Source: Cystobasidiomycetes sp. EMM_F5
Lineage: Eukaryota
Direction of reading: 5' to 3'
NCBI GenBank assembly: GCA_051047955.1
Contig: JBPGPT010000001.1
Coordinates: forward strand, 1,054,001 to 1,118,000
Length of the DNA stretch: 64,000 nt
Under the pieces are notes generated by a model. The model worked only from the letters and a program-made list of their open reading frames with translations. It was not told where the DNA came from and searched no databases. The position numbers were made by a program, and so were the translations under genes. This document shows positions 5,601-51,018 of this stretch, one piece after another. The first letter of the stretch is position 1. Each line of letters opens with the position of its first letter.

Positions 5601-7476
5601 CCGTATATGCATACTATGGAAATCAGGCTGAGCGTGCAGACGCTCGATACTTCCTGAAGCAACAGAAAGACTTGGACGTGATTGTAACAACATACAACAT
5701 GGCGACCGGCATTACAGATGACAAGAAGTTCCTGAAGAAAATGGAATTCAAGGCCTGCGTCTTTGATGAAGGTCATCAGCTGAAGAACGCGGAAAGCAAG
5801 AAGTACAAGGATCTGATGGAAATTAAGGTGAAGTGGCGCCTGCTGCTCACTGGAACGCCACTACAAAACAACTTGCAGGAGCTCGTGGTAGGCTCAATTT
5901 TAGACACTCGGATGTCTGTGCCATGCTGATGCGAATGATGCTCGATCAGTCTCTACTGAGTTTCATGCTACCGAAAGTGTTTTCAGAGGCTCAAGAAAGC
6001 TTGCGAGCCATCTTCAAGATTCCACCGAATGCGCACAAGAACCTGCTTACGCGTCAACGCATAAGCGCAGCCAAGGGCGTAATGGCACCCTTCGTATTGC
6101 GCCGAAAGAAGGCTCAAGTCTTGCAAGATTTGCCCCCAAAGACGGAAATCATAGAGTACTGCGAAATGACTGTCAGGCAAAGAGACATTTACAGAGACAC
6201 CATCGAGAAGCACAAGAAGCAAGTGATCGAATACAATCCTAGCGGAGAGAATACACCGGCAGAAAAGCCGGTCAAGAAGAAGGGTCGGCAAGCAAAGACT
6301 GCCAAAGGCATGCAAGAAGATACGACCAGCAATATTTTGATGCGTCTCCGTAAAGCAGCCAACCATCCAATGCTCTTTAGGAAGATATACGATGACAAGA
6401 AGATTAAGCAGATTGCCAAAGACTGTCTCAAGGAGGAGGAGTTTGCTGATCGGAATGTGGACTATATGTATGTATCGTACTGTCACAGTGACCGCTTGAC
6501 GGTGACTGAGCCTCGAAAGACAGTGTCGAAGACCTGGATTTGATGACTGATTTCGAAATTCATCGATTTGTGACGCCTTACAAGCTTCTTGGCAAGCATG
6601 CTCTCAAAAAGAACGAATGGATGGAGTCTGGCAAGATCAAGAAATTGCAAGAGATGATGCCTAAATTCAAAGAGCAAGGGGACCGTGTTTTGATCTTTAG
6701 CCAATTTGTCTCTGTGCTGGAAATCATGGGACAGGTTCTGCAGACTATGGACATCAAGTACCTTACCTTGACTGGACAAACCAATGTCAATGACCGGCAA
6801 GGGCTGGTAGACGAGTACACCGAAGACAAGGACATCATGGTGTTCTTGCTGTCAACACGTGCTGGTGGTCTCGGCCTCAACCTGGCAGCTGCCAATGTTG
6901 TCGTTATCCTAGATCTCGACTTCAATCCGCGTATGTCATTATTTTCAGCATGCACGAAGCATACACGAGAAGTACTAAGATGTACCTACAGATAATGACA
7001 AACAAGCTGCAGACAGAGCTTATCGGATGGGACAAACGAAACCAGTTACCATATGTAAGGACTGCTGATGTATTGTGTCATCAGCCTAGCTAACAAGTTT
7101 GACAGACCGTTTCATCACCAAAGGATCAATCGAAGAAGACATTCTGTCTTTGGCTGAAACCAAGCTTGCCCTAGACGAGCAAGTTGCCGGAGAATCAGCT
7201 ATTTCGGGCGAACAGGCAGAGAAGCTCGAGATCGAGGAGGGAGATGAGGGTATCGTGGAGAAGAAGGTGAAGGCATCGCTGTACGTACCGTGTATGTCCT
7301 ACCGGCAGAATGGTCGTCTAATCCTTATTCCTCTCAGTATGACCACCTTACAGAAGCGTTTCCAAGGCGACGATCAGACCTACCTACAAGACCAGACAAA
7401 CGACACCGAGCCCAAAGTCGAGGTTACGGACGCCGATGCCGATGTCGAGGTGGATGCGGAAGCTTCGCAGGAATGA
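2697..7476 (+). CDS. FUN30: SNF2-family chromatin remodeler, Fun30/Fft/SMARCAD1 subfamily (multi-exon)
   Basis: LKNYQMLGVNWL, ILADEMG|LGKT, HLVIVPSSTLDNW, DEGHQLKN, LLLTGTPLQNNL, LRKAANHP, RVLIFSQF, FLLSTRAGGLGLNL, DKQAADRAYRMGQ. Long Q/P-rich N-terminus. Confidence 0.92.
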
Positions 7477-18265: not shown

Positions 18266-21200
18266 ATGTCCGACAGCCTCAAGAGCTCATTGGATGTTGA
18301 CAATGCCATATCTGACCGATATCCAACGCCAGACAGCCTGCCATCGCACTCGGCCGCCGTGACGGCTGCAAGACCATACGGCCCTGTATCACAGAGCCAG
18401 CCCGTTGGCAGACAGCGGCCGATATTTCCACAGCCTGGATGTCCGTAGCCGTGTGCGAACATCAGTCGCGTGACGCTGATTATCGTTCCCAGTTGCAGCC
18501 TCGCAGCCAGTTGGGTCGACGAGCTACACCAGGATCCACCAGATTATCGAAATATCCGATACATCTGATGATGGCCAGGCAGCTAGTGACAAGGAGGACG
18601 AGGACGACTTGCCAGAGGTGTCGCAAATCGCTGGGCGGACTTCGACCCTTTTACGGCAAACTGCAAGTTGCATTGTCGCGTAAAGTGGTGACCATTCCCT
18701 GACGGAGATTCTTTTGGTAGACTTTACACGCTAGCTCATCACCCGTAAAGCCTTCCACGACTATACCAACGCCGCTATCGACGCCCGCTCGTCCAGACAA
18801 GGGCAAGCAGCGCGCGGACGACCCAGAGCCGTCCGACAGCGATGACAGCGTCATCATTATAGGAAGCACATGGGCAGCTTCTGCGAGGCTGCGAAGTGCG
18901 TCTCCTTCTACCAACGGCGCGAAAACAGCTGGTAAAGACTCGGAAGACGAATTCCTTGACTCAATCAATGCCGATAATTCTCGCGGCAAAACGCGGGCCA
19001 CTCCCTCCGCATCCCGCTACTATCGCATACAACATGATGATGCAAAGTCGAAATCTCCTCCGCCGTCCCCTACGCCATCTACGTCTCAGCTTACTATGGA
19101 TGTGCACGACAATTCCATAGACCAGCTTGACGAACGGCAACGCCTAAGCACAACACCTCAACTGCAACTACACGACAATATGAATCTCTTGCGGCCAGCT
19201 TTAACTCTGCAGACTAGTCTGATACCGGACAGCGTGGTCGGTGAAGGCGGACTCCTCGACTCCGAGATGGAATTGCCCCTTCAGACAATCAAGACTATTT
19301 CTCCACGTCCTATGCATTCGCCCCAAAGGAATGGGTCATCGACATCTCATCGGTCACCCCGCACGAGCCCTGCTTCAGATAACGGGACGAGCGTGCCGCC
19401 CACGACTTACACCAGCCCGGACTTGGGATACTTATCTAGTACATCCTTATCGACGTTCGGCCCGTCAGTAACAAAAAGATTGAAACGCAAGCGATCTGTA
19501 GCCATGGTGAGGTGCCGAATGCTAGCAGGGTGTCAAGCTTACGTGTTACGTCAGTCTGGCAAAGCACCGTCTCGGTCACGCAAAGCCATCGTATGGACTG
19601 GTCCAGAAGGCATGCACGAATTCGATTCGGTGCTCAACGACCGGCAAGTGTGGCTCTCTAGCTGTGAGCGGTACGGGCTAACGAAAGAGCTCGCAGAATG
19701 TATGCAAGCAAAAAGCGTTGCCCGGAATTGCAAAAGATTACGCGCCTCGTGTTCGAATCGTCAATCAACGAGCGCATTGCAATCGAGGAGCCGTATGCAC
19801 CACGCGTACGCATACGAGATGCTAAAAGTGAAAAGTCTTGTCCGGATACGGACTTCACGTACACCAATCGCATAATCTAGCAAGCTGCTCCCTTCTTCAG
19901 ACGGTCCTCTTCGTCTTGCTGATGTTGATACTCTGTTCAGCCGGAAGGGTGTTGGCTCAACGATACCAGCGCAATCCTGCAATTGTATGGGTCCGTGTAG
20001 ACCGGACAACCCCAACTGCAGCTGTTTAATCAGGCAGGAACATTACTCCGCGAAAGTCAAAAATATAAAAGGCTTTGCGTACGACGAAAACGGTCGACTT
20101 CAACTGCCCGCGGGCATACAGATTTGGGAGTGCAATGTGAAGCGTATATGTAGCTTTACAGAATTTGCAACTGCTAATGCACCTGTGCCTCCTTCAGAGT
20201 GGCTGTGGTTGCTCGTCAGAGGTGATCCCCAATGCACATACTCCTTGTCCATTCACTAACGCTCATCGCATATAAGTGCCAAAATCGAAGGGCTGGCAAT
20301 GGCCGGACGGTGCCGTTAGACCTTGTGAACACGCGGAATAAAGGTAAGTCTGATCGAACCATATGGTCGCTTGACATGTTGAGCTTAAAGCGTGCCATCT
20401 CTAGGATGGGGTGAATTGCGGATCCGACAGAGTCTGTGTAGGTCACGCTAATGATTGCTTTAAGGCGTCCAAGCTCGAGAGGCTATACGAAAGGGAGAGT
20501 TTCTGTGTCTGTATTCAGGCGAAGTGATCTCATGGCACAATGCAGAGTACGTAATATGTAGCCCATTTCCGAATAAACTCACACTAGCTGAACCTCACTG
20601 TCTCAAGAGCCCGCGGACAATTGTATGATCTTCTGCCGGGCAATATCACCTACCTCTTCGATCTTGATTCTCCGGACGTTCTGTGGGTTGATACCTCATC
20701 CGCAAGCGGTCTGACCTGAACTTTTGCTCCAGGCACTCTGCCGAGTATCAACATTTACAGGAAGACGGCTTGATGGTTTTAGAAGCAGATTATTCTATCA
20801 GAGTAGAAGAACAACACAGTTTGCAGGAGTCCAAAACGAGGCATACCAAGTAAGTTTGGAAGCGTTGCCTTCAACGTACAATCTAAAGGTATGACCAGCT
20901 ATTCCGTCGATGCCATGCATTTCGTGAGTTCGCGCCCTGCAAGCACAAGCGTTATTGCTGAAGAAACGATTGAAGGGAAATCTATCCCGGTGGTTCAACC
21001 ACGTGAGGGCAGACAGACCTACGTCATGTCAGGAGCTGATGTGTTGCGTGCTTGCGCCTCCAGTCTTGTTGTCCGAACGCTGGCTTGCGGGATGTCATCA
21101 TCGATGAAAGGGATCCTATGAAACATTTGCTCGGGATCTTCGCCAGAAGAGATATTGCAGCGGACGAAGAAATCTGGTTAGCGTGATATCTCTTGTGTGT

Positions 21201-21724: not shown

Positions 21725-24700
21725 TCAGAGCGTACTACTATCTCCGTCAACACCGCCTTGTGTTGCTCCTGCATCGACTACCGTGGGATGATGCCAATCG
21801 TCGACTACGATGTCTTCAAATGGTGCATTTACCATATGCTCGTATACGTCCTGATCTGTTCGCATAACGTCTTTTCTTGAAGCAATTAGGTATAGAGCGG
21901 ATCTAACCGCAATTGCGCCAAAGGTCTGGGCTCCGAAATTAGTACTCTCCGACACTGCGATTCGTAGATATGCCAGGATTCGATTTGCCCAGTTCTGCGG
22001 AACATCTCTCCCATCCCTGCCTTCGAGCTTCCTTAGTACTTGATCGACCAGCTCGGCGCATTGTAGGTTTAGACGCTGTATCATTTCTTGTTTGACCTTA
22101 ATAGCATATGTACCATGCAAAATCGTCCCGATAAACAGTTCGTGTTCCGAAAGAGGCTGACCAGCATTGAGGCTGTTGGAATAAGCAATGTGGCGAAGGT
22201 CGGATGCATAAGTATGCAAGGTGTACCAAGCTTGCTCCCGCTCAGCCTTGTCGAGAGACACTTCTTGGGTACACACGAGGCCACAAGCTTCGAAGTGCTC
22301 GATAATCGCCAACAGGATGTCATCGTCTTCTGCTGTCGGGACGTATCGTGTATTCAACCGCGGCGCTTCCTTGAGCATCTTGTTATCTTCCTCCTCGCTA
22401 GACAGACGGATTGCTCGGTATAGCTTGCCAAGTATGCGCGAGCTCTGGTAGATTAGATTATCTTCATCCACCCCGCCTTTCGTGTGATCATGGCGCATGA
22501 AATCCGGTCTGTGCGGAAAAAGAGGCGGAGGCATATCCAGCAGATCTACAGACTGGCCACTCTTGGGTGCTGTATCGAATAGCGCCTGATTAGTAGTACT
22601 TTTGACAGAAAAATGGAACCGCGTACCATCGACTGCAATTGTCTGCAGAGCTGCGAGCTTCTTGCAGAAAGGATGTCGTGTACCACACCCGTGCAGAAAA
22701 CCCGCGGGAGCTTGATCTGCAATGAGCAAGTGCTGCAAGACCGTCCACGAGCGTGAGCCGAGCGCCTATGAGTATGTTGACACGCATAACTCACCCTAGT
22801 GGCGATTTGACCCAACATGTCATTCCGAAAGAAGTTGAGTACGAAGTCGATTACGTCTTTGATTGTGCAATCACGATCTAATACTACCGGCCGCTTTGGC
22901 TTGTGCTGCATTGCAGGCTCGGTGCGCATCGGAAATAATCGTCGGTCGTATATCACTGATACCAGATCTCCATCCATATCTCCGCGGGCCAGTGAGGACA
23001 ACAAAGGGGACTCGCCTCTGATGGAGAAGATGACGACATTTGGAAGATGTTTGAAGCGTTCTGCACCAGGAGGGGGAATTCCCACCGCATGTGCAAATTG
23101 AACATCTCCTGTGTCCACTGTTGGAGCGCGAACCAGTAGAACTTTGCCCTCTATGATCTGAGGTGGCTCTCCTGGGTTATGCCGCAACGTATAGATTTCG
23201 TTCTGCGGGCGAGAGGCTCGCATGTTAGCCTTGTTAGTCTGACACTTGCCGCACGCGCAAATCGCATACCTCTTTCAACACGCCGGACTCGTCCGCGACA
23301 GCGACTCCAACATGGGCTTGCAGAATTGGAATGCGGGCTTTGAGTTTGAGCATTCGTAAGATGTGAACCTCTGCAAAGCCAAGCGACTCCGCTATGAATT
23401 TGGAGATATTACCGCTCGATCGGAAGGGGTCAATCCTGTTTGTACGCAACAATTGTCCAACATTCTCAACCAGTTCCGTCACAGAGAATGCATTACCTAA
23501 TCCGTGTAATGTCAATTGTAGCCGTGTTTCGCGGATGTAGTGCTTTAGATCTTCGGCTTTGATCACTGCTTCTTTTAGCAGATCAAGGAATATTTGGTGC
23601 GGGACTGCTAAATCCTCGAGGACTTTGATGAGTGGCCGGTTCAGGAACATCGGAATATAGCGACAAAAAGAGTATGCAATCTCCAATGCCAGTGAGTCGG
23701 GAGCATCGAACTTTTGCTGCGACGGACGAACGCATCTGTGTGCAACGTCAGACGAAGAACTGCTCTGATGGTTGCTACTCCTCACATTTGCTCTCCCGGC
23801 AATTCGGAGTCAACGGTCAGCACACCCTTATACCCTCCCAATCGAAACTGACACGCTGCGTGAGCCACCGTTGACACATGTCCATAAATGCTTGACTTAC
23901 CTGAAACGCGCTCGGCAGGATGCCGGCAGGCTCCATGCCATTGTGAAGACGCGACCAGACTTGCTTTGTCAGACCCATCGAGATTTTGCCAACACCATCT
24001 GTGAAACATGCGGTCTCTCCACGGTATAGTCGCTCGACGTCGGGTATACTCGAGATCTGGTGTGGCTGCAGCACTATGGATGGATCGGTCGCCGTGAAAG
24101 CTTGGGCCATACGGGCCCCATATCTAGCTGGCTGCCGTTTGACGTTCTCAAAGTCTCCAAGATCATCACGGATGAAGTTTGCGTCAACTTCATGCACTTT
24201 TCCGGCCTCATCATACCAATTGAATTTTGTGCAAAACCAGGTTGATCGGTTTCTCAAAGACGACATGCTATATCCGAGAAAGTCGTATTTTCTTTCATCC
24301 AGCAGGATTAGACCATGGAAAAGAAGTTGTGGACCCATTTGACTTACCTTCCGCCCAAATTGATTCCCGTACGAAGAACTTTGCCTACACGTTCGTCCAG
24401 GAATGCTGTCCAATCGATGTCGTATCCCTGAAGAGTCGTATAAATCAGTCATTTATCGATTTTCCCGGATGTTTGTCACACTGACCCAGAAGTAAGGCTG
24501 CCTGTCTTCGTCCATGAACGAGACTCGAATGAAATGGTCGTGGTTGCCGTACTTCCTGTTGATGGTGTTCATCAGTCGCTAAACGTACGTATCTTCCCGC
24601 TCAAAATTACCTGAGAGGACGGTTAGATTGGTCTGAGTACGGCCCTTCCAAGATCATTGAGGTTGGAGTCATTATGACATGCAAGCATTGCATGACGGAG

Positions 24701-31053: not shown

Positions 31054-34000
31054 CTACTTTGGTGTGGAAGGCTGACTTTGCGACTCGCTTTCGTCATAAC
31101 TTGGCAGTCCTACACTCAGACTCAAGGGCACCACACCTCCACCCAGGAAGCCTCGGCGCGCCATGTCATAACTCGGTACCTGGGACAGGTACTTTTGGCC
31201 GGTCGTGTCGCGCTCTGCTGCAGTGTCGTGATGATCATGGTCGTGGTCGTGATCGTGATCGTGATCATGGTCATGGTCGTGGTCATCGTCGTCGTCCGCA
31301 TGCAAGCTTGCGAAAGTTGTCTTCTTCTTGCTTTTGGATCCGAATCCGAAACTGGCCTTCCCCTTGCCCTTCTTGTCTCGCGCTTGATGCGCCTCCAGTG
31401 CGGCTATGGTTTGAGCTGCTACGTCACCAGAACTAGGGTCGATGGATGAACTCCCAGCACGGGAACGTGGTGGAGAATGCTGAGGCGTTGCTACATCAGC
31501 TTGAATACCGTCATCGTGCAATGCAGAAGACGACGAGTTCCGGGAACGGCCTGAATGCAGGAAGCTGCTCAAGGCATGAGGCAGATGCGGTCTGTCATCC
31601 GAGTGATGTCCGGAAGACGACTTCAGCGCCTTCGGCATATGAAAGAATCCCGAGCTGGTGCGGTGGCCATCACCGAGTGCAGTAAGAGTAGGGTTGGACC
31701 TGTTTCGCGGAACATTCGCAGAGTCTGCAGGTTCGCCGCGCACAGGAGAACTCGCGCGTGAGGTCGGGCGACTCGAGGGCCTCGAAGACGGCCTGGATGT
31801 TGGCCGACTCGTATTGGGCGATGAGTGATGCGAAGGGCCGCGCGAGTGCTCGCCGCTGCCGGTCTGGGCACCTTGCTGTGGCAATGTCAGGGACAGCGAA
31901 TTCAGTAACTCCGCATCCGCCCAATTAATATTCCGAGCAGGGTCAGGGAAGTAGCCACCAGTCAAAGTGGGCGACTGCGGTCGAGACGGTACTGGAGATG
32001 CCCAAGGACTGCGTGCGAAGCTGGCAGCACTGACTGCAGAAGGCTGAGAGCCGGTGGAATTTGCAGAGGCAGTATCGATGTTTGCGATGCGGTCTCTGAC
32101 GTGCTCTTGATAACTAGGCAATTCAACCTGTTGTATCCCTTCTGCAGCAGGGATCAATGCTCCAGTAGGACCAAACAGTAAGGACCTAGTACCCGAAGAT
32201 GCAAGCCGAGCTTCCTGGCTGAGATAGGAGGAAAGCATAATGATTGGAAGAGCGCAGCGTAGCTCCGAGACGTGCCCGTCTGGGTTCTGTATGTAGGCTG
32301 ACCATTTCAGCTTGTGGGAGACGACAATAGGCTGTATCAGGCCGTGCGTCAGCGGGGGGCACAAATGGTTATGGAATGGCTTTCCACCAACCTCGATACT
32401 GTGAGAAGGTGTGACGGCCAGGGGAATCTGTATTTCGACGTGAGCGTCAATGTCCGCGTCCAGAGAGCCATCCTCATCAATGTGGCCCGCGAAGTCGGGA
32501 TCCGCGGTATTACGTCCGTAATAGACGCGTTCAGGCGAAGCAGGCCGACTTCCATGACGGCTATTGCTGGTTGAGGATGATGCAGATGCACCGATGCCTA
32601 TATTGGAGACCCCAGCGGTACTTGCTTGCGCAGCGGCAAGAGCGTTCTGTATCGCAGAGGCAGACACACCAGAGGACGTAGTATGCAGGCCGTTTGTCTG
32701 GTCTGGAGTATGATGGCCGGTACGAGATCTTGAGGAGGTCCCGCTAGCTGACTGATGATGATCATCAAGAGCTAGACGGTTGGCGTGATTTACCAAACCG
32801 GAAACATCTGCGTGCGATGTCGTCCTCGATACAGGAGCCGACACAGGCTGCATGTTGAACAGAGTGCTGCCGTTTGGTGTGATGGAGGTTGCTCGTGACA
32901 CGAAGCTGTGTTTTTTGGTATAGACATCACGCTGCGTGCTGTGGGGCTGCCCGTGCTTGTCTAGTATAGTGACATGCTCTTTGATCGTTGTGACTAGTTG
33001 GGTCACTTTGATACCCTTGCCGATTGGCGTAAATTTGAGAGCGCTAAAGAAAACAGAATTAGTGGGTGACCAGACTCTACTATGCTTTGCGACGTACACT
33101 GGGATACTGTCGCCGATGCAAAAAGCCTTGTGTGGTAGAGTCAAGCTGTACATGATCTTTCCCGGCCACGTGTTTTCAATCTCTAGAGTCTGGACAAACT
33201 CCCCAGACTCCGGATGCAAGCCTCGGATCAGGGTGACTGGGCGTTTCGTAGACCATTTGTGGCCGAATACACCGAATCCGCCCGCTTTCACCGCAACAGC
33301 TTTCAGCTGGTAAGTCAAAATCGAAGAACCGTTGCTGACGCGCAGACTGGCGGGAAGCGCTCCTGGTATCTGCAATGAGAAGGGAAAGCGGTGGACACCT
33401 GCTCTGAGCGTATGTGAGTGATGGCTATGATGGCCGTGATGTTTGGGTTTTTGAGTTTGATAGTGCGGGTGGGCGTGATCGTCTGTTGTACTGTTGGGGT
33501 GATTGTTGGACAGGAAGCCAGGCATATTCTGTGTTATAGCGCCCGGAGTGGATGCTGGAGTGGAGTTGGCGGAACCTGTCGATGCAGCGTGTTGGAAATG
33601 ATCGCCCAAGCTCGATGCGCTTTGACTTGTGCTGGACCGGGAAAAGCCTGGGTGGTGTTCTCCTCGGTGACCGTCCTCGAAGTCGGGAAAGAAGCTTTGG
33701 TCATGGAAGTATACGGGTATGTCTAGCGAGTGGTACTTGTAACCTCCACTACTTTCCGAGTAGGTGATATGAGCTCTGCGATTCGATAACATGGCGTGCG
33801 AAATGATGTGTGGTAGCAAAAGTAGGTCAGAAGCCGTCAGCACTCCGTCGTTCGTATGATCTTCCTAGATAAAGTTCCGGGTATAGCTGACCTGCCGGAA
33901 AGTTCGAGCCTGATGTCTTTGATGTCTGTACGCTCGTGCAGATCTAGCACGACTGATCCTGCAAGGGTTACTGGCTCGGCTGCGACATTCAAATGCACGA

Positions 34001-37149: not shown

Positions 37150-39958
37150 ATGTCGGAGGAAACCAAAGTCTCTGCTTTGCCGGAAGCGGGCGCGGCAGCC
37201 TCTCAAGGTTTGATGAACTCCGAATACGCCTGGCGAAAGCGTGGTTTGATGGACCTCATCAACTCTCTCCGTGCGATTGGAGCATCGCTCGATCTTGAGT
37301 AAATATAGCGCGTAGTGTCAGATTGAAACCTCTCTCAGTCGCGTTGCTTTCAGTCTGCCTGTGATCACAGTCATTGGCAATCAGTCCAGCGGGAAATCGT
37401 CTCTCATCGAAGGCATCTCAGGTGTAAGTCCTACTTTCATTGAAATCTATACAGTTGTTTGTTATTCACTAGACAATCGACGCGGCAGATTACGTTGAAA
37501 CGCTCCTCCGGGACATGCACCCATGTTCCGATGGAGGTCCGTACGGAACATACCGTCGATCAGCCCTGGAGCTGCAAAGTCTATCTTAGGGCTCAGACTG
37601 ATGAAGACGGCAATGTCAGCTCCGTCAGCGCTAAAATCCAGGGAGAAACTGACGAAGCATACATCGCAGGCATTGAAGAACATTCGCGAAGTTCAATTCG
37701 GTCCGATCCTCACAGATCCTGATCAGGTCGAGCTGACGCTCCAACGCGCTCAGCTCGCTTTGCTGAACCCGTCTGTCGACGCAAAGGCTTTCGAGACATA
37801 CGATTTTCCACGCGATGAGTCCGTACGCCCTCTCAATTCTAAGAAGCAGCTTGCCTTCTCGCGCAATATAGTTTGTGTCGAGATCCGAAGTCCGAATGTG
37901 ACGGACTTGACTCTCATTGATCTGCTTGGTATCATCTCAATGGTAGGACCCGGAGAGGACAAGTCAAGCATCGGAGAAATTGAGGACATGGCTAAACACT
38001 ACATCTCAAAAGATTGCCTGATAGTTCTCACGATAACAATGAAAGGTCAGCCTTTGTAAGCCATACGGATAGCGCGAGCTGACGGGATCTACCATCAGAC
38101 GACATAAACAACCAGAAAGCTTGTATGCTGGCACAGGAGTTTGATCCGCAGGGCAAGCGGACTATCGGTACGTACCGAGATGGTTGGCTGAAGCGACAGC
38201 CTGTAATGTTACGTGCTGTCTAGGCGTCTTGACTAAGCCGGATACCGTACAAGGATCAGATGTCGACATATGGCTGCCAGTCTTCAAAAACGAGAAGGTC
38301 AAGCTCCAGCATGGTTACTACGTGAATATCACTACTGGTAACATTTCGTTAAACAAGAGAGACTGATTTGAATGACCTAGGTGACACGGCTACCCAACAC
38401 AGATGAACTTGCAGCCAAAATATCTCATGATGCAGCACGAAAGAAAGAAATAGATTTCTTCGCTTCCACCCCGCCTTGGAACACCTTGGATGGGCGCTGG
38501 AAAATGCGTCTTGGAATCGCAAACTTGACGAAGTTTCTCAGTGACGTGCTCTTAGAGATGATCAAAGCAGGGTACGCAAAGGCTACGTGCTCAGGGTTTT
38601 GCCCACTCATTTGACGACAATCAGGCTTCCGGCCATAATGGAGACAATTCAAGCGATATACTTGAAAGCATCCAAAGAGCTCTCGTCAATGCCACCAGAA
38701 CCATCCACAGATCCTGCAGCAGAGCTGCTTATACTTATCAATGCGTTCCACGCAGATTTGTTGGCGGCTACTGAGGGCTACCTCGGATCGGAAGGCCTCA
38801 TCAGAAGGCTCAATGAAGTGTATCGCGAGTTCGGGGAAGCCATCTGGCAAACGGCACCCCGTTTCACTCCGTTTACTAGAGCCGAGATCGACGGAGACGA
38901 AGAGGACGAAATGGACTGCTCGAACCTCCTTGATGATATAGAAGGCGTTGACAAGCTATCGACTTCTCTCGGAGGACAAGCGGCATCGGTCAAAAATCTT
39001 GATGATGTGTCGGAGTCTATTGAGCAGTACGACAAAAGTGACCTAAAAGGCGTTGTAGCTGACCATCGCTTGCCAGATCAATCACGCGGGAACTGCCCAA
39101 CAACGTTCCGTTTGCGTGTAAAGTCGGTCTCATCAAGCACATGGTGTCAACTTGGCCTGCTATTGTTGAAGATACTTTCGAGCAATGTAGGCCAGTAGTT
39201 GAATCCGTTACAGATAACTTGACGTCCAGGCATTTTGCAAAGTACGAATATGGCATGCTTCCAGCTCGAGTGCGGTAAGTGCGCTCTTCGAAAATGGGTC
39301 AATCAGTCAAGGTGACATATGCATAGGGCAATCATAGAGGAGAAATGCGCCGAATTGGCCCTCAATACGGAGGCCATGTTGAAATGGCACGCCAAAGTAG
39401 AATTGCGGCCATACACACAAAGCCGCTTTTACATTACAGACATCAAAACAAAATTCCTGGCACGACTGCGAGACGAGCGAGCAAGGGTGACTGATGACGA
39501 TGAGGATTCTCACGTATCGGAGAAAAGTGCAAAGTTGGCTGTCCAGCATTTGACGGAAGCCGGATATAAAAACATCAAGCTAAGCGATCTGGAGAAGCTT
39601 CGTCAGGTGGAACCGTTTGAGCGGGAGCTTGATGTCATGGCCGAAGTTCGAGCATACTACCAAGTTGCATACAAGGTGTGTGACCGGAGAGCCTGCCCAT
39701 TTGAATGACTGACGAGTCGCAATAAAGCGTTTCGTCGATAATGTTCCGATCACAATCGATGCCGAGTACATCCGCGTTATTGCATCCGCAATCCGCGATG
39801 TCATGGTGAAGGAGCTAGTCGCCCCGGGTCCCGACGTTGCTAAGAGATTGCTAGCGGAAGCTCCAACTACTACAAATGCCCGCAATGAGCTGATCGAGAA
39901 ACGCAAGCGTATTGGACTTGCCAAGGAGGAGATACGAAAGTACGGCCTTAAATTTTGA
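37150..39958 (+). CDS. Dynamin-superfamily GTPase, Mx-like fungal clade (multi-exon)
   Basis: LPVITVIGNQSSGKSSLIEGISG (G1), SGTCT (G2), LIDLLG (G3), GVLTKPD (G4), SITRELPNNVPF, GED MAEVRAYYQVAYK|RFVDNVP. Confidence 0.88.
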
Positions 39959-40240
39959 GCTGGGATTAAGATCGTTGTGGCCGGATTGTTTGAAATGAAA
40001 CGTCTGCAGTAAAGAAGCGGGAGCACTCGATAAATCTAGCAGGATCTGTCAAACGTTGTGACGTTCAGAGTGCAAGCCACCAGCGCGCTCTCCAACAATC
40101 TGGCGAAGACGCGGTATAAACGCTTTTGACTTGCGCACGATGCGAGAGCAATGCAGTCTGCGCTATGATTACTACTAACGCTCAAAGTGATGGAATACGT
40201 TGTCATCGCCATCCTGCTCGCTCCGCTCGGTGCTTTCGTT

Positions 40241-40625
40241 TTAAACACAACCTGCACTGTCCGGATGTGTGTCGCACCAGGTACTGTGGCCCGTATCACG
40301 CTTGACCTTGCAGCTGGCGCTGTTCGGATGCATATCGCAGTATGTACTGTGTGCCGTATCGCGCTGTACTACATTAGCTAAGGACGAGGTCAGCTTCAGC
40401 GTCCAGTGTGAATAGATCGTAGCGTAGTGAATGACAAACCAGATTCATCGTTATTGACTGCGTGACGACGCTACAGACAATATCAGCGGAGGCTCTTATT
40501 GGACCACAGTAGACGCTCACCTGGACGCCACCACCTCTGCCGCGCCCTGCTGCTGCTGGGCTGTAGGCGAGTGCGCTCATTGTGCCAAGTCCACCGACGA
40601 GGATGAAAGCGCTGATGAGCTTCAT
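40241..40625 (-). CDS. Small secreted repeat-peptide precursor (KEX2-processed repeat protein-like), 90 aa, 3 exons
   Basis: Exons 40625-40521, 40470-40440 and 40377-40241, with GT-AG introns carrying GCTGAT and GCTGAC branch points. Translation: MKLISAFILVGGLGTMSALAYSPAAAGRGRGGGVQRRHAVNNDESANVVQRDTAHSTYCDMHPNSASCKVKRDTGHSTWCDTHPDSAGCV*. Confidence 0.82.
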
Positions 40626-41048
40626 GTTGATGTCAAAGATAAGTGTGTGGTTGTAAATGTGCTGGAAGAGTGAGTACACTGAAAAGGAGAGACATTGCCA
40701 AACAAGGCCGTACTGCCCGACCTGGTGGACCGCAAGCGACCCGGACCTTGAAGGGTTATAGATCATTATTGGGCACGAGGATCGAACGCATGCGCTGAAT
40801 ACTTTCTCTTTAGCTTTGTGACTTTGCTTCATAGCGATTTCGTCAGCTTAGCTACGCTTGCGATATGATATTTGGTTGTTGTTAGAGGGAATCGTGTGTC
40901 TCTTACAATCCAAAAACAGGGCACAGCGGCGGGACAATAAGAGGAAGCAGTGTAGCAGCAGTAAGGTGCGGGAAGATGAGATGGACAGGCGGGAGTGAGT
41001 AGGATGGCTTCAGAGAGCGGGAAAGCGGGGAAACCGTTCTCAGCCTTC

Positions 41049-41299: not shown

Positions 41300-42326
41300 A
41301 TGTCTGCGACTCGTCACCCATCAGTCTTTGATCTCACTCAGGAGGATGCTGCACTCCTCCTCGCCGCCCAGGCGCACATTGGCGGCAAGGCTGTCGACAC
41401 CAAAATGAGCAACTACGTCTACAAGCGTCGCGCCGATGGTGAGTGTGGGATGACTGATAGGTAGAGGGATAATAATGCTAATGAGCGTACCCGCTCCGTC
41501 CGCAGGCATCAACATTATCAACGTCCAGAAGACTTGGGAAAAGATTGTCCTGGCCGCACGTGTCATTGCTGCCATCGAGAACCCCATCGACGTCTGCGCA
41601 GTCTCTGCTCGTCCTTACGGTCACCGTGCAGTCCTCAAGTTTGCCGCCAACACTGGTGCTCAGGCTATTGCTGGTCGATTCACCCCGGGTTCATTCACAA
41701 ATTACATCACCCGCTCATTCAAGGAGCCGCGTCTCATTATCGTGACTGACCCCCGCGTCGACCACCAAGCTATCCGCGAGGCTTCGTACGTCAACATTCC
41801 AGTCATTGCGCTCTGCGACACCGACTCTCCTCTCAAGTTTGTCGACATTGCTATCCCGACAAACAACAAGAGCAAGCACTCTATCGGTCTGATCTGGTGG
41901 CTCCTCTGCCGTGAGGTTCTCCGCATTCGCGGAACCGTAGGACGTGCCCCGAGCGACTGGGAAGTCATGGTCGACATGTTCTTCTACCGTGACCCAGAGG
42001 TGAGTCGTAAGACATTAATGATCAGGGCTCTCGGACACGAGCTTACAGTGGCTATGTCTCGTCAGGAAATTGACCGCGAGACTGCCGAGAAGGCTGCCCT
42101 GGCTGCCGCTGCTGATGGCGGCGTTGCCGAGATTGGCGGACAGGCTGCTCAAGCCATGGCCAGCAGCGACTGGGAGATCTCTGCCACTGCTGGTGGAGGT
42201 GCAGGTGCAGCTGCCACTGCTGGTCTTCAGGGCGGTGATGACGCCGGCTGGGGAGCCGAGACTACAACCGATTGGGCAGCTGACCAGCCAGCCACGACCA
42301 CCGCGGGCCCTACCGGCTGGGAGTAA
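41300..42326 (+). CDS. RPS0: 40S ribosomal protein uS2 (S0/SA)
   Basis: [74 protein letters not shown]. Introns 41439-41505 and 42000-42065. Confidence 0.97.
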
Positions 42327-46393: not shown

Positions 46394-46632
46394 AAAGACA
46401 GCTATCATCACTCGCGCTCAGGATACACTTCTTTATGGTGATTTGACGGCATACAAAAGATTGGCTACATTCCATCTTAGATCATGGAAGTGCGCCTTTC
46501 ACGATTCATTACATGATGGCATTGAGAAGCGTTGTAATGAGGTAGAGCAGCATTAAACCCCGCACGTTTGAAAGCTTTGAATTTCCCTAAGTGTCCTTGG
46601 TGCACTATTTGCTTGAACCGCAGATGTTCGTC

Positions 46633-48531
46633 TTACGGCAACCCGACACCTTGATACGAAGGAAGCTTGAAGACGTTCCGCGGATCGTATGTCTTCTTGA
46701 TACTCTGTAGCTTGGCATAACTGGAGCCGTAGTAGAGCCTTTGAGCATCCGATGCAGCGAGATTTGTATCGATGTAGCTGGAAACGATACGACTCGGAGT
46801 AAGAAGAGTAAGAACATTGTCCCGGATAAAATGCAAGTCGCACTGACTTTTGATAAGCCTCGTATGGCCATCCACTCGACATCGACCCAGTGATGCTTTG
46901 TACCATTCCATTCACGAGATTGGTTCCAGTCGAGCTGTATGGAAGTCCGTCTGTTGACGAATCAGTATCGCTGTCCTATCTCTCTTCGATGAATGACCTA
47001 CAATTATAGGAGCTCGCATAGAATTGGATTGTAAATAGACTGCTTCGATGTACAAAAGCCGTAGCAGATGCGGGAACTGCATTGATTTGGGAGTTTTGAC
47101 CGCCATAGAGCTCTACTTGCACGAACCAGCGGGCTTGTCCATTATTGACGGCATCGAATCCATTGGTAGCCAGGTAATTGCTGAAGCTAGTCAAAGCGGT
47201 AGATGTCATGGGAGCCGACTCGGGCGTCATGATGGACTTGGCGTAGAATGTATCCTGATAGTCGGACTGCTTGGAAGTATCCAGGTTCTGATTGCCTGCG
47301 AGCAGCTGAAGCGTGTCTTTCCAGCTCTGACTCGTGACACGCGAGGTGGAAGTGGCCGGGAAATTGGTCAACAGAGGTGCAACGACGCTGTCTTCGAATG
47401 TGCTTTGGCTACCGATGTATGTGATCGTGAAGCTACTGCTGATGGTACCTCGCCGAGATCCCGCAAACATGTTCAGGGTGCTTCCCCACTCCCTCGGGGC
47501 GGTCTCGGAGAATTGCTGATATGCCGCCAACATGGAAGATGTCACATTGACGGGCTGGTTCTATTAAGAGCAAAGAGAGCATTCAGTCAGCGTACAAGGC
47601 CACCTCCGTCCTGCCTCAACGCAAGACGCACGTCCCAAGTATAGACAGCATATACTACGCTGCTGGGAGCAGCATGAGTCTTCAGCCCAAAGGCAGTCAC
47701 AATACCATACGAGCCACCAGCGCCTCGCATGGCGTAGAAGAGGTCGGCGGAGGTGGACGCGGAGATGTTGCAAATTTGACCGTCGAAAGTCACCACTTCC
47801 AGCGAATTGACCTGATCCACAACCATGCCCCAGTTGCGTGAAAAGAAGCCAAACCCTCCATAAATCGCGCTGAAGAAGATGTTTGGTTACCTGAATTCAC
47901 GAGGTACCTCCGTTACTCAAGCTTACTGGCCACCAATGCCGACATACGGGCACACACCGTGTGCTACCGCTCGTCCCTGTGAATTCAAGGCGAGTGCAAC
48001 GTCGCCGAGCTTTGCTCCGCCCCCTACGGTTGCGTACTGTAAATAAACGCTTAGCTGGCTGAAACATTTGACTCCACTTTAACAGCTTACCTCGCCAGAG
48101 ACTGTGACCTTGTTGAGCTGTTTGAGGTCAATGAGAATATGATAGTTCTCGCCGCCGAGAGCATTGGAAGCGTAGGAATGGCCACCTCCTCTTGCGTTGA
48201 TCCAATAGGCAGCATCGACGCCGCACTTGACAGCAGATGCTACTTGTTGAGCGGATGTCGGCTGGACCACAGCAATGGGCGTGTACGAGATCCTGTGAAC
48301 GTCAACCATGAGTTCAGTTCGTTGAAAGCTTGTTGTTGTAAGAAGCCAAATAACGCACCTCTGATTGAACGGCTTGATGGCAGACGACCACGTACTACCG
48401 CTGGAGCTGGTCAGGTACTGTATGCCAGCGTTACCTAGGCATGACTTCAGGTAATTGAGATTGCCAGGACCTTGAGCAACTGCTGCAGTCGTGAACCAAG
48501 CCGCAGCCAGGAGAAGTTGACGTACAGACAT
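46633..48531 (-). CDS. Secreted FAD-linked oxidase, berberine-bridge/gluco-oligosaccharide oxidase family (CAZy AA7), copy A
   Basis: Signal peptide; ARGGGHSY; AVAHGVCPYVGIGGH (His and Cys for bicovalent FAD); DLFYAMRGAGGSYGIVT; BBE domain YQN|YID...YYGSSYAKLQSIKKTYDPRNVF. Confidence 0.9.
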
Positions 48532-49063
48532 GATAGAGGAAGTATACGGGTATGAAGAGAAGAGAGGGGGAGCCAGTCAGCGTGCAACACCCATTCCGCA
48601 TCGTCCTTCTTGCGGCTGTGTCCAACCGTTGCGTTCGAGTCGTACACGCACACCGCACCAGTAGGCAGACTTCTAGCGAAGAAGGAGTGGGAAGATTACG
48701 AAAGCCTCGCATACAGCTTATTTGTGTGCGGTGCATGCTCGTCAGTCATCGCATCGCTCGTGATGGGGTATGGTCCTGCAGCGCCCAGATGACGCAGCGA
48801 TATTGAGATGGTCTCGTTATGGGCGCCTAGGCGCGTCAGCACAGTCATCGCTTGATTCTTGATACATGATATCATTGCGTCCGCTGGCTTGACAGAATAT
48901 AGAGAGATCAGACCCGAACCTGGACCCAGCCTTTATAGCATCAGGGTCAAAAGCAGAGATCGCGGAAATGCACAAGTGTGCTTGCCATTGGCAGGATACT
49001 GCTACAACAACGAAAAGTACTGAACGTGGGAAAAACTAAGAGTATTATAAGCTTGAACTGTTT

Positions 49064-51018
49064 CTACAGAGTGAAGTCTGACAAGCCTTCAGAGATGGCA
49101 TATGACGTAGTTGCAGGCAGGCCGATAGCCTGGTACGAAGGAAGCTTGAAGACGTTTCTCGGGTCGTAAGTTTGCTTGATGCTCTGCAGTCTGGTATAGC
49201 TTGAACCATAGTAGAGATTTTGGGCGTCCGTGGCGTTCAGGTTCGTATCGATGTAACTGAACAGAACGAATCATTAGCTGTGTTCCAGTCTACGTTGCCG
49301 TACGTCGAGGCTCACTTTTGGTAAGCTTCATATGGCCACCCGCTTTGCATGCTGCCGGTGATGCTTTGCACCATACCGTCAACAAGGTCAATGCCGGTGG
49401 ATTTGTATGGCAAGCCGTCTGTGAGGGAACAATCAGCGATCTGACTCGCATACTCAGCAGAAAACAACTTACAACTCCAAGAGCTGGCATAGAACTGGAT
49501 TGTGAATAGGCTGCTCCTGTGTACGAAGGATGTGTCGTTGACGGGAACAGCATTGATTTGTGATTGCTGGCCGCCGTATAGCTCGACTTGAACAAACCAG
49601 TGCTGCTGGTTGTCATTGACAGCGCTTACGCCAGCGCCGCCCAAGAAGTTTGAGAAGCTGGAGAGCGCCTCGGCAGTCATGAGCGAGGCTTCCGGCGTCA
49701 TGATAGACTTGGCATAGAAAGAGTCTTGATAATCGGATTGTTTAGACGTGTTGAGATTTTGGTTGCCCGCCAGTAGCTGTAGTGTGTCCTTCCAACTCTG
49801 GTTTGTAACGCTTGATGGCTTTGTGACGCTCGGGAACTTGTTCAACAGCTGAGAGACGATATCGTTCTCGAATGTGGTTTGGTCGCCAACGTAGGTGATG
49901 GTGAAGCTGCTATTGACGGTGCCGGGCAGATAACCCGCGTTCATGTTGAGCGTACTGCCCCATTCCTTTGGCGCAGTAATGGAAAAGTTCTGGTACGCAG
50001 CCAGCATGGAAGCTGTTACATTTGCGGGTTGATTCTGTAGGCGATGGCAATCGTCAGTACATGTTTTATACGCCCGAGCATACCATTCTAGACATACATC
50101 CCATGTGTAGGTAGCATAAACGACACTGCTTGGCGCTGCGTGCGTCTTGACGCCAAAAGCGGTGACGATTCCGAAAGAGCCTCCTGCGCCGCGCATGGCG
50201 TAGAAGAGATCGGTATCGTTGCCAGTGGAGGAAACGTTGCGGATTTGACCATCAAAGGTGACAACTTCGAGGGATGTCACCTGGTCCACTACCATGCCCC
50301 AATTTCGCGAAAAGAAGCCAAATCCGCCATACACGCCGCTACAATTGGGTTATTAGCGATGAGTGGAACGCTTATTTGACGGTTCAAGCTTACTGTCCGC
50401 CGATGCCGACGTACGGGCACACACCATGTGCGAGTCCTCTACCTTGCGCATCGAGGCCTACCGCGACATCACCAAGTTTGGAACCGCCTCCGATTGTAGC
50501 ATACTGTAGTCAGACCTGGGTTGTCAGCAATACGCACTAAGGGTGCGCTGGAGACTCCTCTCACCTCGCCGTACACGGTGATTTGGTTGAGTTGCTTGAG
50601 GTCGATGAGAAGATGATAATCTTCTCCGCCAAAGGAGCCCGAAGCATAGGAATGACCTCCGCCTCGTGCGTTGATCCAGTATGCGGCATCGACGCCGCAC
50701 TTGACAGCGGCCGCTACTTGTAGCGCAGATGTCGGCTGAACCAGTGCTATCGGGGTATACTCCAGTCTGACCAGAACGTGTTTCTTAGTGGTCGGTGATG
50801 GCGTTCAGGACGAACCAAACGGCTTACCTCTGGTTGAAGGATTGTATTCCCTTCGTCCACGAGTCTCCATTACTGCTGACGAGGTACGATACGCCCGCAT
50901 TTGACAGACATGAGTTTAGTAGAGTCGAATTGCCAGGTCCTTGCGCGGTTGTGGCCACTGCCAGCAACGCCACTGCGGCCACTGCATGTCTGAACGAGAA
51001 GGACGATGGAGCAGACAT
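49064..51018 (-). CDS. Secreted FAD-linked oxidase (AA7/BBE family), copy B, tandem paralog
   Basis: Same motifs and intron positions as copy A (ARGGGHSY, HGVCPYVGIGG, DLFYAMRGAGGSFGIVT, YDPRNVFKLPSYQ). Ends ...GLPATTSYAISEGLSDFTL*. Confidence 0.9.

Follow-up and report, generated by a model that had tools for sequence, protein, structure and literature searches.

Results

Genes of the window

The window, that is, the whole 64-kb stretch of DNA that was analysed, was scanned against Pfam with 222 ORFs (117 of at least 115 codons from the entire window and 105 of 70-114 codons from 30-51 kb); a scan of this kind may miss exons shorter than 70 codons. Matches were obtained for housekeeping genes, namely an SNF2 helicase, ANAPC5, an RNA-dependent RNA polymerase (RdRP), an arrestin-like protein, Vps3844, a dynamin-like protein, uS2, Spt21, Pho88 and eS8. 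The peptide gene described here, on the minus strand, occupies a 1.3-kb gap. On one side the dynamin-like gene (plus strand, with a GED domain) stops at 39958; on the other the uS2 gene, also on the plus strand, has its ATG near 41300. With uS2 the peptide gene shares a divergent upstream region of ~675 bp. An earlier note on this DNA had reported that the window lacks DUF3328/UstYa and tyrosinase genes, and we agree: none of the 222 ORFs matched these families, nor P450, peptide methyltransferase or other usual tailoring genes of RiPPs. Homeodomain and STE3-type genes were likewise found in none of the 222 ORFs.

For the arrestin-like ORF (936 residues), the closest named relatives belong to Microbotryomycetes and Pucciniomycetes, with 37-48% identity; matches in four further assemblies are slightly closer (42-48%). 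No relative above 48% identity was found among 81 protein matches. Judged by these relatives, the host is a Pucciniomycotina basidiomycete without a close annotated relative, and since the arrestin-like gene has no near-identical relatives in the protein collection searched, its lineage is poorly sampled. The RdRP gene (PF05183) is multi-exon and adjoins an exon with a Pre-SET domain. Because of this RdRP gene, the fungus probably has an RNAi pathway. Two BBE-like FAD-linked oxidase genes stand in tandem at a distance of 6-10 kb from the peptide gene, whose strand they share; uS2 and Spt21 separate them from it.

Structure of the peptide gene

On the minus strand, the coding sequence runs from an ATG at 40625 to a TAA ending at 40241 (Table 1). 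Removal of two introns yields a closed frame of 273 nt, which is 90 codons and the stop. The strand, the ends, both introns and the 90-residue product had been proposed in the earlier note, and translation and the splice path test below reproduced all of them. Without splicing, the frame from the ATG stops at 40376-40374 after 83 codons. This is why the ORF list displays the N-terminal part only, as had been remarked. Exon 2 (31 nt) is required for the frame, and its skipping leads to an immediate stop.

Table 1. Positions of the peptide gene, its parts and other features mentioned in the text (numbering of the window)
Feature	Position	Strand	Description
Exon 1 (CDS part)	40521..40625	-	Signal peptide and Gly/Arg-rich pro-region; last residues Val-Gln
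Start codon and 20-codon signal-peptide-like segment	40566..40625	-	AACATG context; ends in Ala-Leu-Ala
Intron 1	40471..40520	-	50 nt; GTGAGC...CTGAT...TAG; CTGAT 12 nt from the 3' end
Exon 2	40440..40470	-	31 nt; first residues Arg-Arg (36-37), a canonical Kex2-type site
Intron 2	40378..40439	-	62 nt; GTTTGT...CTGAC...TAG; CTGAC 12 nt from the 3' end
Exon 3 (CDS part)	40241..40377	-	Both units and the TAA stop (40243-40241)
Unit 1	40307..40369	-	Residues 49-69; V-Q-R, then D-T-A-H-S-T-Y-C...C-K; Cys59, Cys68
Unit 2	40244..40306	-	Residues 70-90; V-K-R (dibasic Lys71-Arg72), then the 18-residue C-terminal core; Cys80, Cys89
TATAA box-like element	40756..40760	-	~135 nt 5' of the ATG; putative function, read from the letters
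Out-of-frame uORF	40633..40695	-	20 codons; ends 7 nt short of the main ATG; inside ORF 40633..40755
Anchor intron, SNF2	5888-5949		62 nt
Anchor intron, RdRP	23203-23269		67 nt
Anchor intron, uS2	41439-41505		67 nt
Pre-SET domain exon	19876-20256		Adjoins the RdRP gene
RdRP gene	21728-24452	-	Multi-exon; PF05183
Arrestin-like ORF	31057-33864	-	936 residues
BBE-like oxidase gene	46556-48576	-	FAD_binding_4 at 48082-48576; BBE at 46636-46911
BBE-like oxidase gene	49315-50804	-	FAD_binding_4 at 50472-50804

For the splice path test, introns of 45-100 nt were allowed that begin with GTNNG[CT], carry CTRAY 8-28 nt from the 3' end and end in YAG. The real interval holds three motif-complete candidate introns and offers exactly one way to join the ATG to the units in frame and without a stop. 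This path, the only one among the three candidates, is the splice model of the earlier note. Any in-frame path was present in 57 of 3000 dinucleotide shuffles of the interval (1.9%). Both introns fall within the 50-69 nt mode of the candidate introns of the window. Three introns that join Pfam-consecutive exons in the SNF2, RdRP and uS2 genes served as anchors. The introns of the peptide gene resemble these three in size, in GTNNG[CT] and in CTRAY. Their 3' ends differ: TAG with the branch motif at 12 nt in the peptide gene, against CAG with the branch motif at 20-24 nt in the three anchors. The AACATG start context is common to the peptide gene and the adjacent uS2 gene. An unsupervised splice-site model built from ORF-joining candidates let through 151 of 158 clusters, among them many that lie antisense to genes; it was over-fitted and was dropped as a quantitative test.

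A longer N-terminus, reaching back upstream in frame to 40847, scored -2.0 bits on the codon model described below and was not adopted. The uORF would belong to the leader only with a transcription start upstream of 40695, and it is a complication for the gene model, not support. One sequencing run (X1, possibly of DNA, word share 0.08) gave, at 80% likeness, a single contig of 154 nt at 39964-40117 and none over the gene.

Layout of the predicted precursor

The product consists, in order, of a hydrophobic N-terminus of 20 residues, a Gly/Arg-rich segment with V-Q-R-R that ends in Arg36-Arg37, an acidic segment of 14 residues and two units of 21 residues each. Both units follow the pattern V-[QK]-R-D-T-x-H-S-T-[YW]-C-D-x-H-P-[ND]-S-A-x-C-x, and each contains a loop, aromatic-C-x3-P-x4-C. 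Lys71-Arg72 separates the two cores, and unit 2 runs up to the stop codon. Ahead of unit 1 stands V-Q-R, a non-canonical site without a dibasic pair. The V-Q-R-R and V-Q-R of the pro-region and the K-R between the cores had all been named before, and all are present in the translation.

The N-terminus is signal-peptide-like, as the earlier note had it. The Kyte-Doolittle maximum over 11 residues is 2.51 (residues 3-13) and does not exceed -0.19 past residue 25; Lys stands at position 2, and Ala-Leu-Ala at 18-20 supplies the A-x-A of the predicted cut site. The signal peptide was assessed by eye, hydropathy and the -3/-1 rule, and the cleavage sites were assigned by eye. AlphaFold2 modelling of the 44-residue two-unit segment, run without an alignment, gave a mean pLDDT of 62.7 and a pTM of 0.32, values too low for the model to be of use.

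Divergence of the two units

In the first 17 residues of the cores, 12 are identical. Over the whole 21-codon units, 14 of 21 residues and 43 of 63 bases are identical, and the 20 differing bases are distributed 4/4/12 over the first, second and third codon positions. Seven of the changed codons are purely synonymous and seven are non-synonymous (pS 0.80 and pN 0.20, both proportions of differences). With synonymous differences saturated in this way, orthologues that conserve the frame would be expected in Pucciniomycotina. The two Cys, the two His and the Pro are the same in both units.

Neutral divergence was simulated by placing the observed numbers of transitions and transversions at random on the units. 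The probability of keeping at least 14 of 21 residues was 0.0008, and that of finding at least 12 of the 20 differences at third positions was 0.003. These per-locus P values are somewhat optimistic, the locus having been picked post hoc out of 64 kb. In the other two frames of the units, just 9 of 20 residues are common, and there is a stop in one copy. The third-position excess, the residue retention and the poorer other frames thus point to an old duplication that has been held to the peptide frame. The peptide frame is under purifying selection. The earlier note had argued for selection at the protein level from the shared core residues and the synonymous changes, and the neutral simulation bears this out.

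A codon model was trained on the 11 ORFs of at least 300 codons in the window. It gave the peptide frame +7.6 bits, against -15.6 and -43.0 in the other frames. Among true coding segments the score of +7.6 ranks at the 7th percentile, and 6.5% of random segments of the window score as high, so that codon usage weakly supports the peptide frame.

The repeat search showed the DNA copies as 49 nt with 78% identity at a spacing of 63 nt, and Tandem Repeats Finder returned no rows at score 30. The string aromatic-C-x3-P-x4-C occurs twice in the six frames of the window, both times in the peptide gene, and no third copy of the unit was found in the window in any frame. An in-window tblastn match at 60389-60324 (E 0.054), antisense within an ORF of 1329 codons, was taken as chance.

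Search for relatives

A word-indexed protein search with the 67-residue ORF of exon 3 gave no candidates. The 44-residue two-unit segment was then compared by phmmer with 1.84 billion cluster representatives, with E up to 0.001. Three matches were returned, none of them fungal-like and none a fungal prepropeptide. The best, P0001 (E 1.4e-9), has 866 residues, a signal-like N-terminus, eleven 21-residue units W-C-x-K-F-P-x-S-E-x-C-K, a membrane segment and Listeria-Bacteroides repeats. P0003 (E 3.8e-4) has 145 residues and five loops and matches DUF6862 and CP12. P0002 was rejected as a low-complexity junk repeat. P0001 (~57-290) and P0003 (~51-145) are apparently bacterial secreted proteins built of aromatic-C-x3-P-x4-C loops of 18-21 residues.

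In Pfam, the two-unit segment matched CP12 (PF02672) in two stretches with 21.9 bits (E 3.1e-4), below the cutoff of 22.7 bits. The sole matches among solved structures were CP12 C-termini, with E values of 0.3 and 0.91; the structure alignment of CP12 reads Y-C-D-x-x-P-[DN]-x-A-x-C-[KR]-[IV]. When all 18 loops were stacked, they had the aromatic-C-x3-P-x4-C frame in common. No NCBIfam family matched the 44-residue segment, and the Protein Atlas gave no usable match.

A metagenome scan yielded 75 pattern matches and four tblastn-confirmed loci, all judged to be chance: one is a single W-C-D-T-H-P-D-S stretch in a high-GC ORF of 589 residues (L003), one is broken by stops (L001), and two were judged from the result table (L002 and L004). 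Four core strings did not occur in the literature searched by string. Six core strings were absent from the text supplements of PMC7329392 (three files) and PMC6339444 (two files); other supplements could hold a relative. In the literature on Pucciniomycotina and Kex2, nothing relevant was found among the matches listed.

No fungal relative was found by the word, phmmer and metagenome searches. The earlier statement that the family was not recognised holds in so far as no described fungal peptide family was matched in the word, HMMER, literature and supplement searches. It was too strong for the motif, which resembles the C-terminal C-x3-P-x4-C loop of CP12 and the bacterial loop repeats.

Discussion

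We consider it highly probable that the coding gene is real. That it encodes a secreted, Kex2-processed precursor of two disulfide-loop peptides is the account that we favour, with moderate confidence. The best reading of the gene is that it is unannotated and lineage-restricted.

According to this account, residues 1-20 would direct the precursor to the ER, and signal peptidase would cut after Ala20. Each unit would close its own Cys-x8-Cys disulfide, Cys59-Cys68 and Cys80-Cys89, giving a ten-residue ring around a Pro-Asn/Asp-Ser turn, as may be supposed from the equally spaced Cys pairs of CP12 (PMC3906501, in excerpt). In the Golgi, a Kex2-type convertase would then cut at two places, behind Arg36-Arg37 and behind Lys71-Arg72, leaving the basic residues for a Kex1-type carboxypeptidase to trim. 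The C-terminal product would be a peptide of 18 residues (73-90) with a net charge of about -3. The N-terminal product would have 33 residues (38-70), or 19 residues (52-70) with an extra cut at V-Q-R. Kex2 takes Arg at P1 and prefers Lys at P2, and Gln is not among the P2 residues listed in the excerpted text of PMC8528282. Cleavage after V-Q-R51 is doubtful for that reason. The release of two peptides of ~18 residues, as proposed earlier, therefore fits the C-terminal core, which has K-R ahead of it, and is uncertain for a free core 1 of ~19 residues.

Both peptides would contain two His, two Cys and several Asp, and outside the cell such small anionic loop peptides could act as a signal or as a metal- or redox-responsive ligand. 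The anionic character of the predicted products and their high content of His, Cys and Asp speak against a classical cationic antimicrobial peptide; signalling and metal or redox binding are the likelier roles left. The function may be hard to see, since kep knockouts of Coprinopsis had no axenic phenotype in the excerpted text of PMC9769878, which also describes the synthetic peptides tested as not antibacterial.

The precursor may instead be secreted and remain uncut, as one four-cysteine protein of ~53-70 residues or as two chains joined by inter-unit disulfides. The units have just one canonical dibasic site between them, V-Q-R stands ahead of unit 1, four Cys permit other pairings, and the bacterial look-alikes keep their loops in one chain without basic sites. 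However, an exposed K-R followed by an acidic residue, here Asp between two short loops, is the classic and preferred context of Kex2 (PMC8528282 and PMC6339444, both in excerpt), and in CP12 the Cys pairs are as a rule local, C-x8-C (PMC3906501, in excerpt). A conserved processing signal is also suggested by the V-[QK]-R with which both units begin and by the V-Q-R-R ahead of the pro-segment. We regard an uncut product as unlikely.

Another explanation is that no gene is translated here, and that a 63-bp tandem duplication has decayed in intergenic DNA downstream of a hydrophobic ATG ORF among chance GT-AG pairs. In its favour, the word, phmmer and metagenome searches gave no homologue, the codon score is marginal, a uORF stands ahead of the ATG, and splice paths do arise in shuffled sequence for a locus that was chosen post hoc. 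Neutral decay, however, would not be expected to leave the third-position excess and the residue retention described above, nor would it favour one frame over the other two. In addition, the motif matches natural loop repeats at the E value of P0001, and the signal peptide, the splice path and the selection signature are independent features that coincide. We give this explanation a slightly lower probability than that of an uncut product.

More speculative again, and held at low probability, is the view that the gene belongs to a Pucciniomycotina family, so far unannotated, of secreted mini-peptides with CP12-like loops, and is the first of them to be seen. Two His, two Cys and clustered Asp in each core of 18-19 residues would then make the peptide an extracellular redox-switched Cu/Zn ligand, either a ribosomal metallophore or a signal that senses metal. 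Bacterial surface proteins and CP12 would each have evolved this 21-residue loop module on their own.

A RiPP precursor, with cores that enzymes from genes elsewhere macrocyclise or tailor in other ways, seems very improbable. That modification is common at aromatic, His and Cys residues counts for it. So does the combination of a signal peptide with repeated cores, which is also the architecture of the ustiloxin type (PMC7329392, in excerpt). The two BBE-like oxidase genes are near enough to be named in its favour, and no link between them and the peptide is indicated. On the other side, the tailoring enzymes sought were absent from the ORFs scanned, and the immediate neighbours (dynamin-like, uS2 and Spt21) are housekeeping genes. 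By the lack of DUF3328 (UstYa) among the 222 ORFs scanned around it, a ustiloxin/dikaritin-type precursor was rejected.

The least credible reading is a precursor of alpha-factor-type pheromones, for mating or signalling, with Cys bridges in the peptides: yeast MF(alpha)2 has two repeats, several alpha pheromones of ascomycetes have aromatic-C...P...C cores such as the Xylona motif, and the basidiomycete yeast Trichosporon oleaginosus has a puzzling alpha-like KEP (PMC6339444, in excerpt), but the host is a basidiomycete by its relatives and basidiomycetes use a-type pheromones only (same excerpt), Asp-Thr and not a Ste13-type X-Ala or X-Pro dipeptide follows K-R, the ORFs scanned include no homeodomain or STE3-type gene, and the cores, anionic and 18-19 residues long, exceed the quoted alpha pheromones.

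The favoured account, a gene for a Kex2-processed two-loop precursor, would mean that a functional small gene was overlooked by standard annotation, which misses it because each exon alone is too short or has no start codon. Published KEP screens miss it because they require three repeats. If the gene is real, this suggests that two-unit prepropeptides are under-counted in fungal secretomes, especially in the poorly sampled Pucciniomycotina, and further lineage-specific small genes may hide in this genome. The peptides are short enough for synthesis, so that their activity, disulfide state and Cu/Zn binding are directly testable. The presence of one aromatic-C-x3-P-x4-C loop in a fungal propeptide, in bacterial surface repeats and in CP12 is a minor structural curiosity. 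The finding opens no long-standing question. Orphan KEP-like genes are numerous already (PMC7329392, in excerpt). The high novelty claimed at first was overstated: the gene would be an orphan of a class with 2560 stand-alone members reported in that source.

Comparison with known systems

The units of the peptide gene have the same C-x3-P-x4-C spacing as CP12 and share 7-8 positions with its C-terminus. The Cys pairs of CP12 form reversible intramolecular disulfides, Chlamydomonas CP12 binds Cu2+ and Ni2+ in vitro, and a central AWD_VEE motif is a feature of CP12 (PMC3906501, in excerpt). Unlike CP12, the fungal protein scores below the Pfam cutoff, has no AWD_VEE in its 90-residue translation, stands behind a signal peptide in a non-photosynthetic host and lacks the residues after the second Cys. 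The likeness to CP12 is one of a common motif or local fold, not of membership.

The apparently bacterial proteins also resemble the fungal one. P0001 has 11 tandem units of 21 residues with the same loop, P0003 has five loops and ends, like the fungal protein, in ...C-V, and both start with signal-peptide-like segments, as the fungal protein does. In contrast to the fungal precursor, neither has basic cleavage sites between its loops, which stay in one chain. Recent transfer is unlikely, since the fungal gene has spliceosomal introns, and convergence on a stable mini-loop is the simplest reading. There seems to be a widespread extracellular CP12-loop-like mini-repeat, apparently undescribed as such.

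Among pheromones, precursors of the a-type lipopeptides have a C-terminal CAAX box and no signal peptide. A basidiomycete pheromone of this kind was considered and rejected: the product has a signal-peptide-like N-terminus and ends in ...G-C-V, with Cys second from the end and no CAAX. An ascomycete alpha-factor-type precursor was judged unlikely from the residues after K-R and from the host. The two-cysteine alpha pheromones of Pezizomycotina resemble the cores in the aromatic residue before the first Cys, the Pro in the loop, the small residue before the second Cys and the KEP-type precursor (PMC6339444, in excerpt). They differ in having C-x6-7-C loops, lengths of ~10-14 residues (same excerpt) and ascomycete hosts. 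The word and phmmer searches detected no similarity to them or to the alpha-like KEP of T. oleaginosus.

The nearest system in layout is that of the KEPs and MF(alpha)2. The KEP surveys ask for at least three tandem repeats of at least 8 aa between KR, KK, RK or RR sites and for an N-terminal signal peptide by SignalP (PMC6339444 and PMC7329392, both in excerpt). [quoted passage not shown] Its 21-residue unit is within the 9-24 residue class of KEPs (PMC6339444, in excerpt). It differs in having only two units, V-Q-R before unit 1, no Ste13 dipeptides and a Cys pair in each core, and the core strings have no counterpart among the KEPs catalogued in the text supplements searched. The earlier assignment to the KEX2-processed repeat proteins is therefore right as to the layout and the dibasic site between the cores (with Arg36-Arg37 upstream), and wrong as to the definition of the surveys, of which two units fall short. 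The description of both cores as separated by dibasic sites has to be corrected, because core 1 follows V-Q-R, whose Gln is not a listed P2 residue. In our analysis, the gene is a plausible but unremarkable orphan, of a kind already known, and its layout is of the KEP/alpha-factor type.
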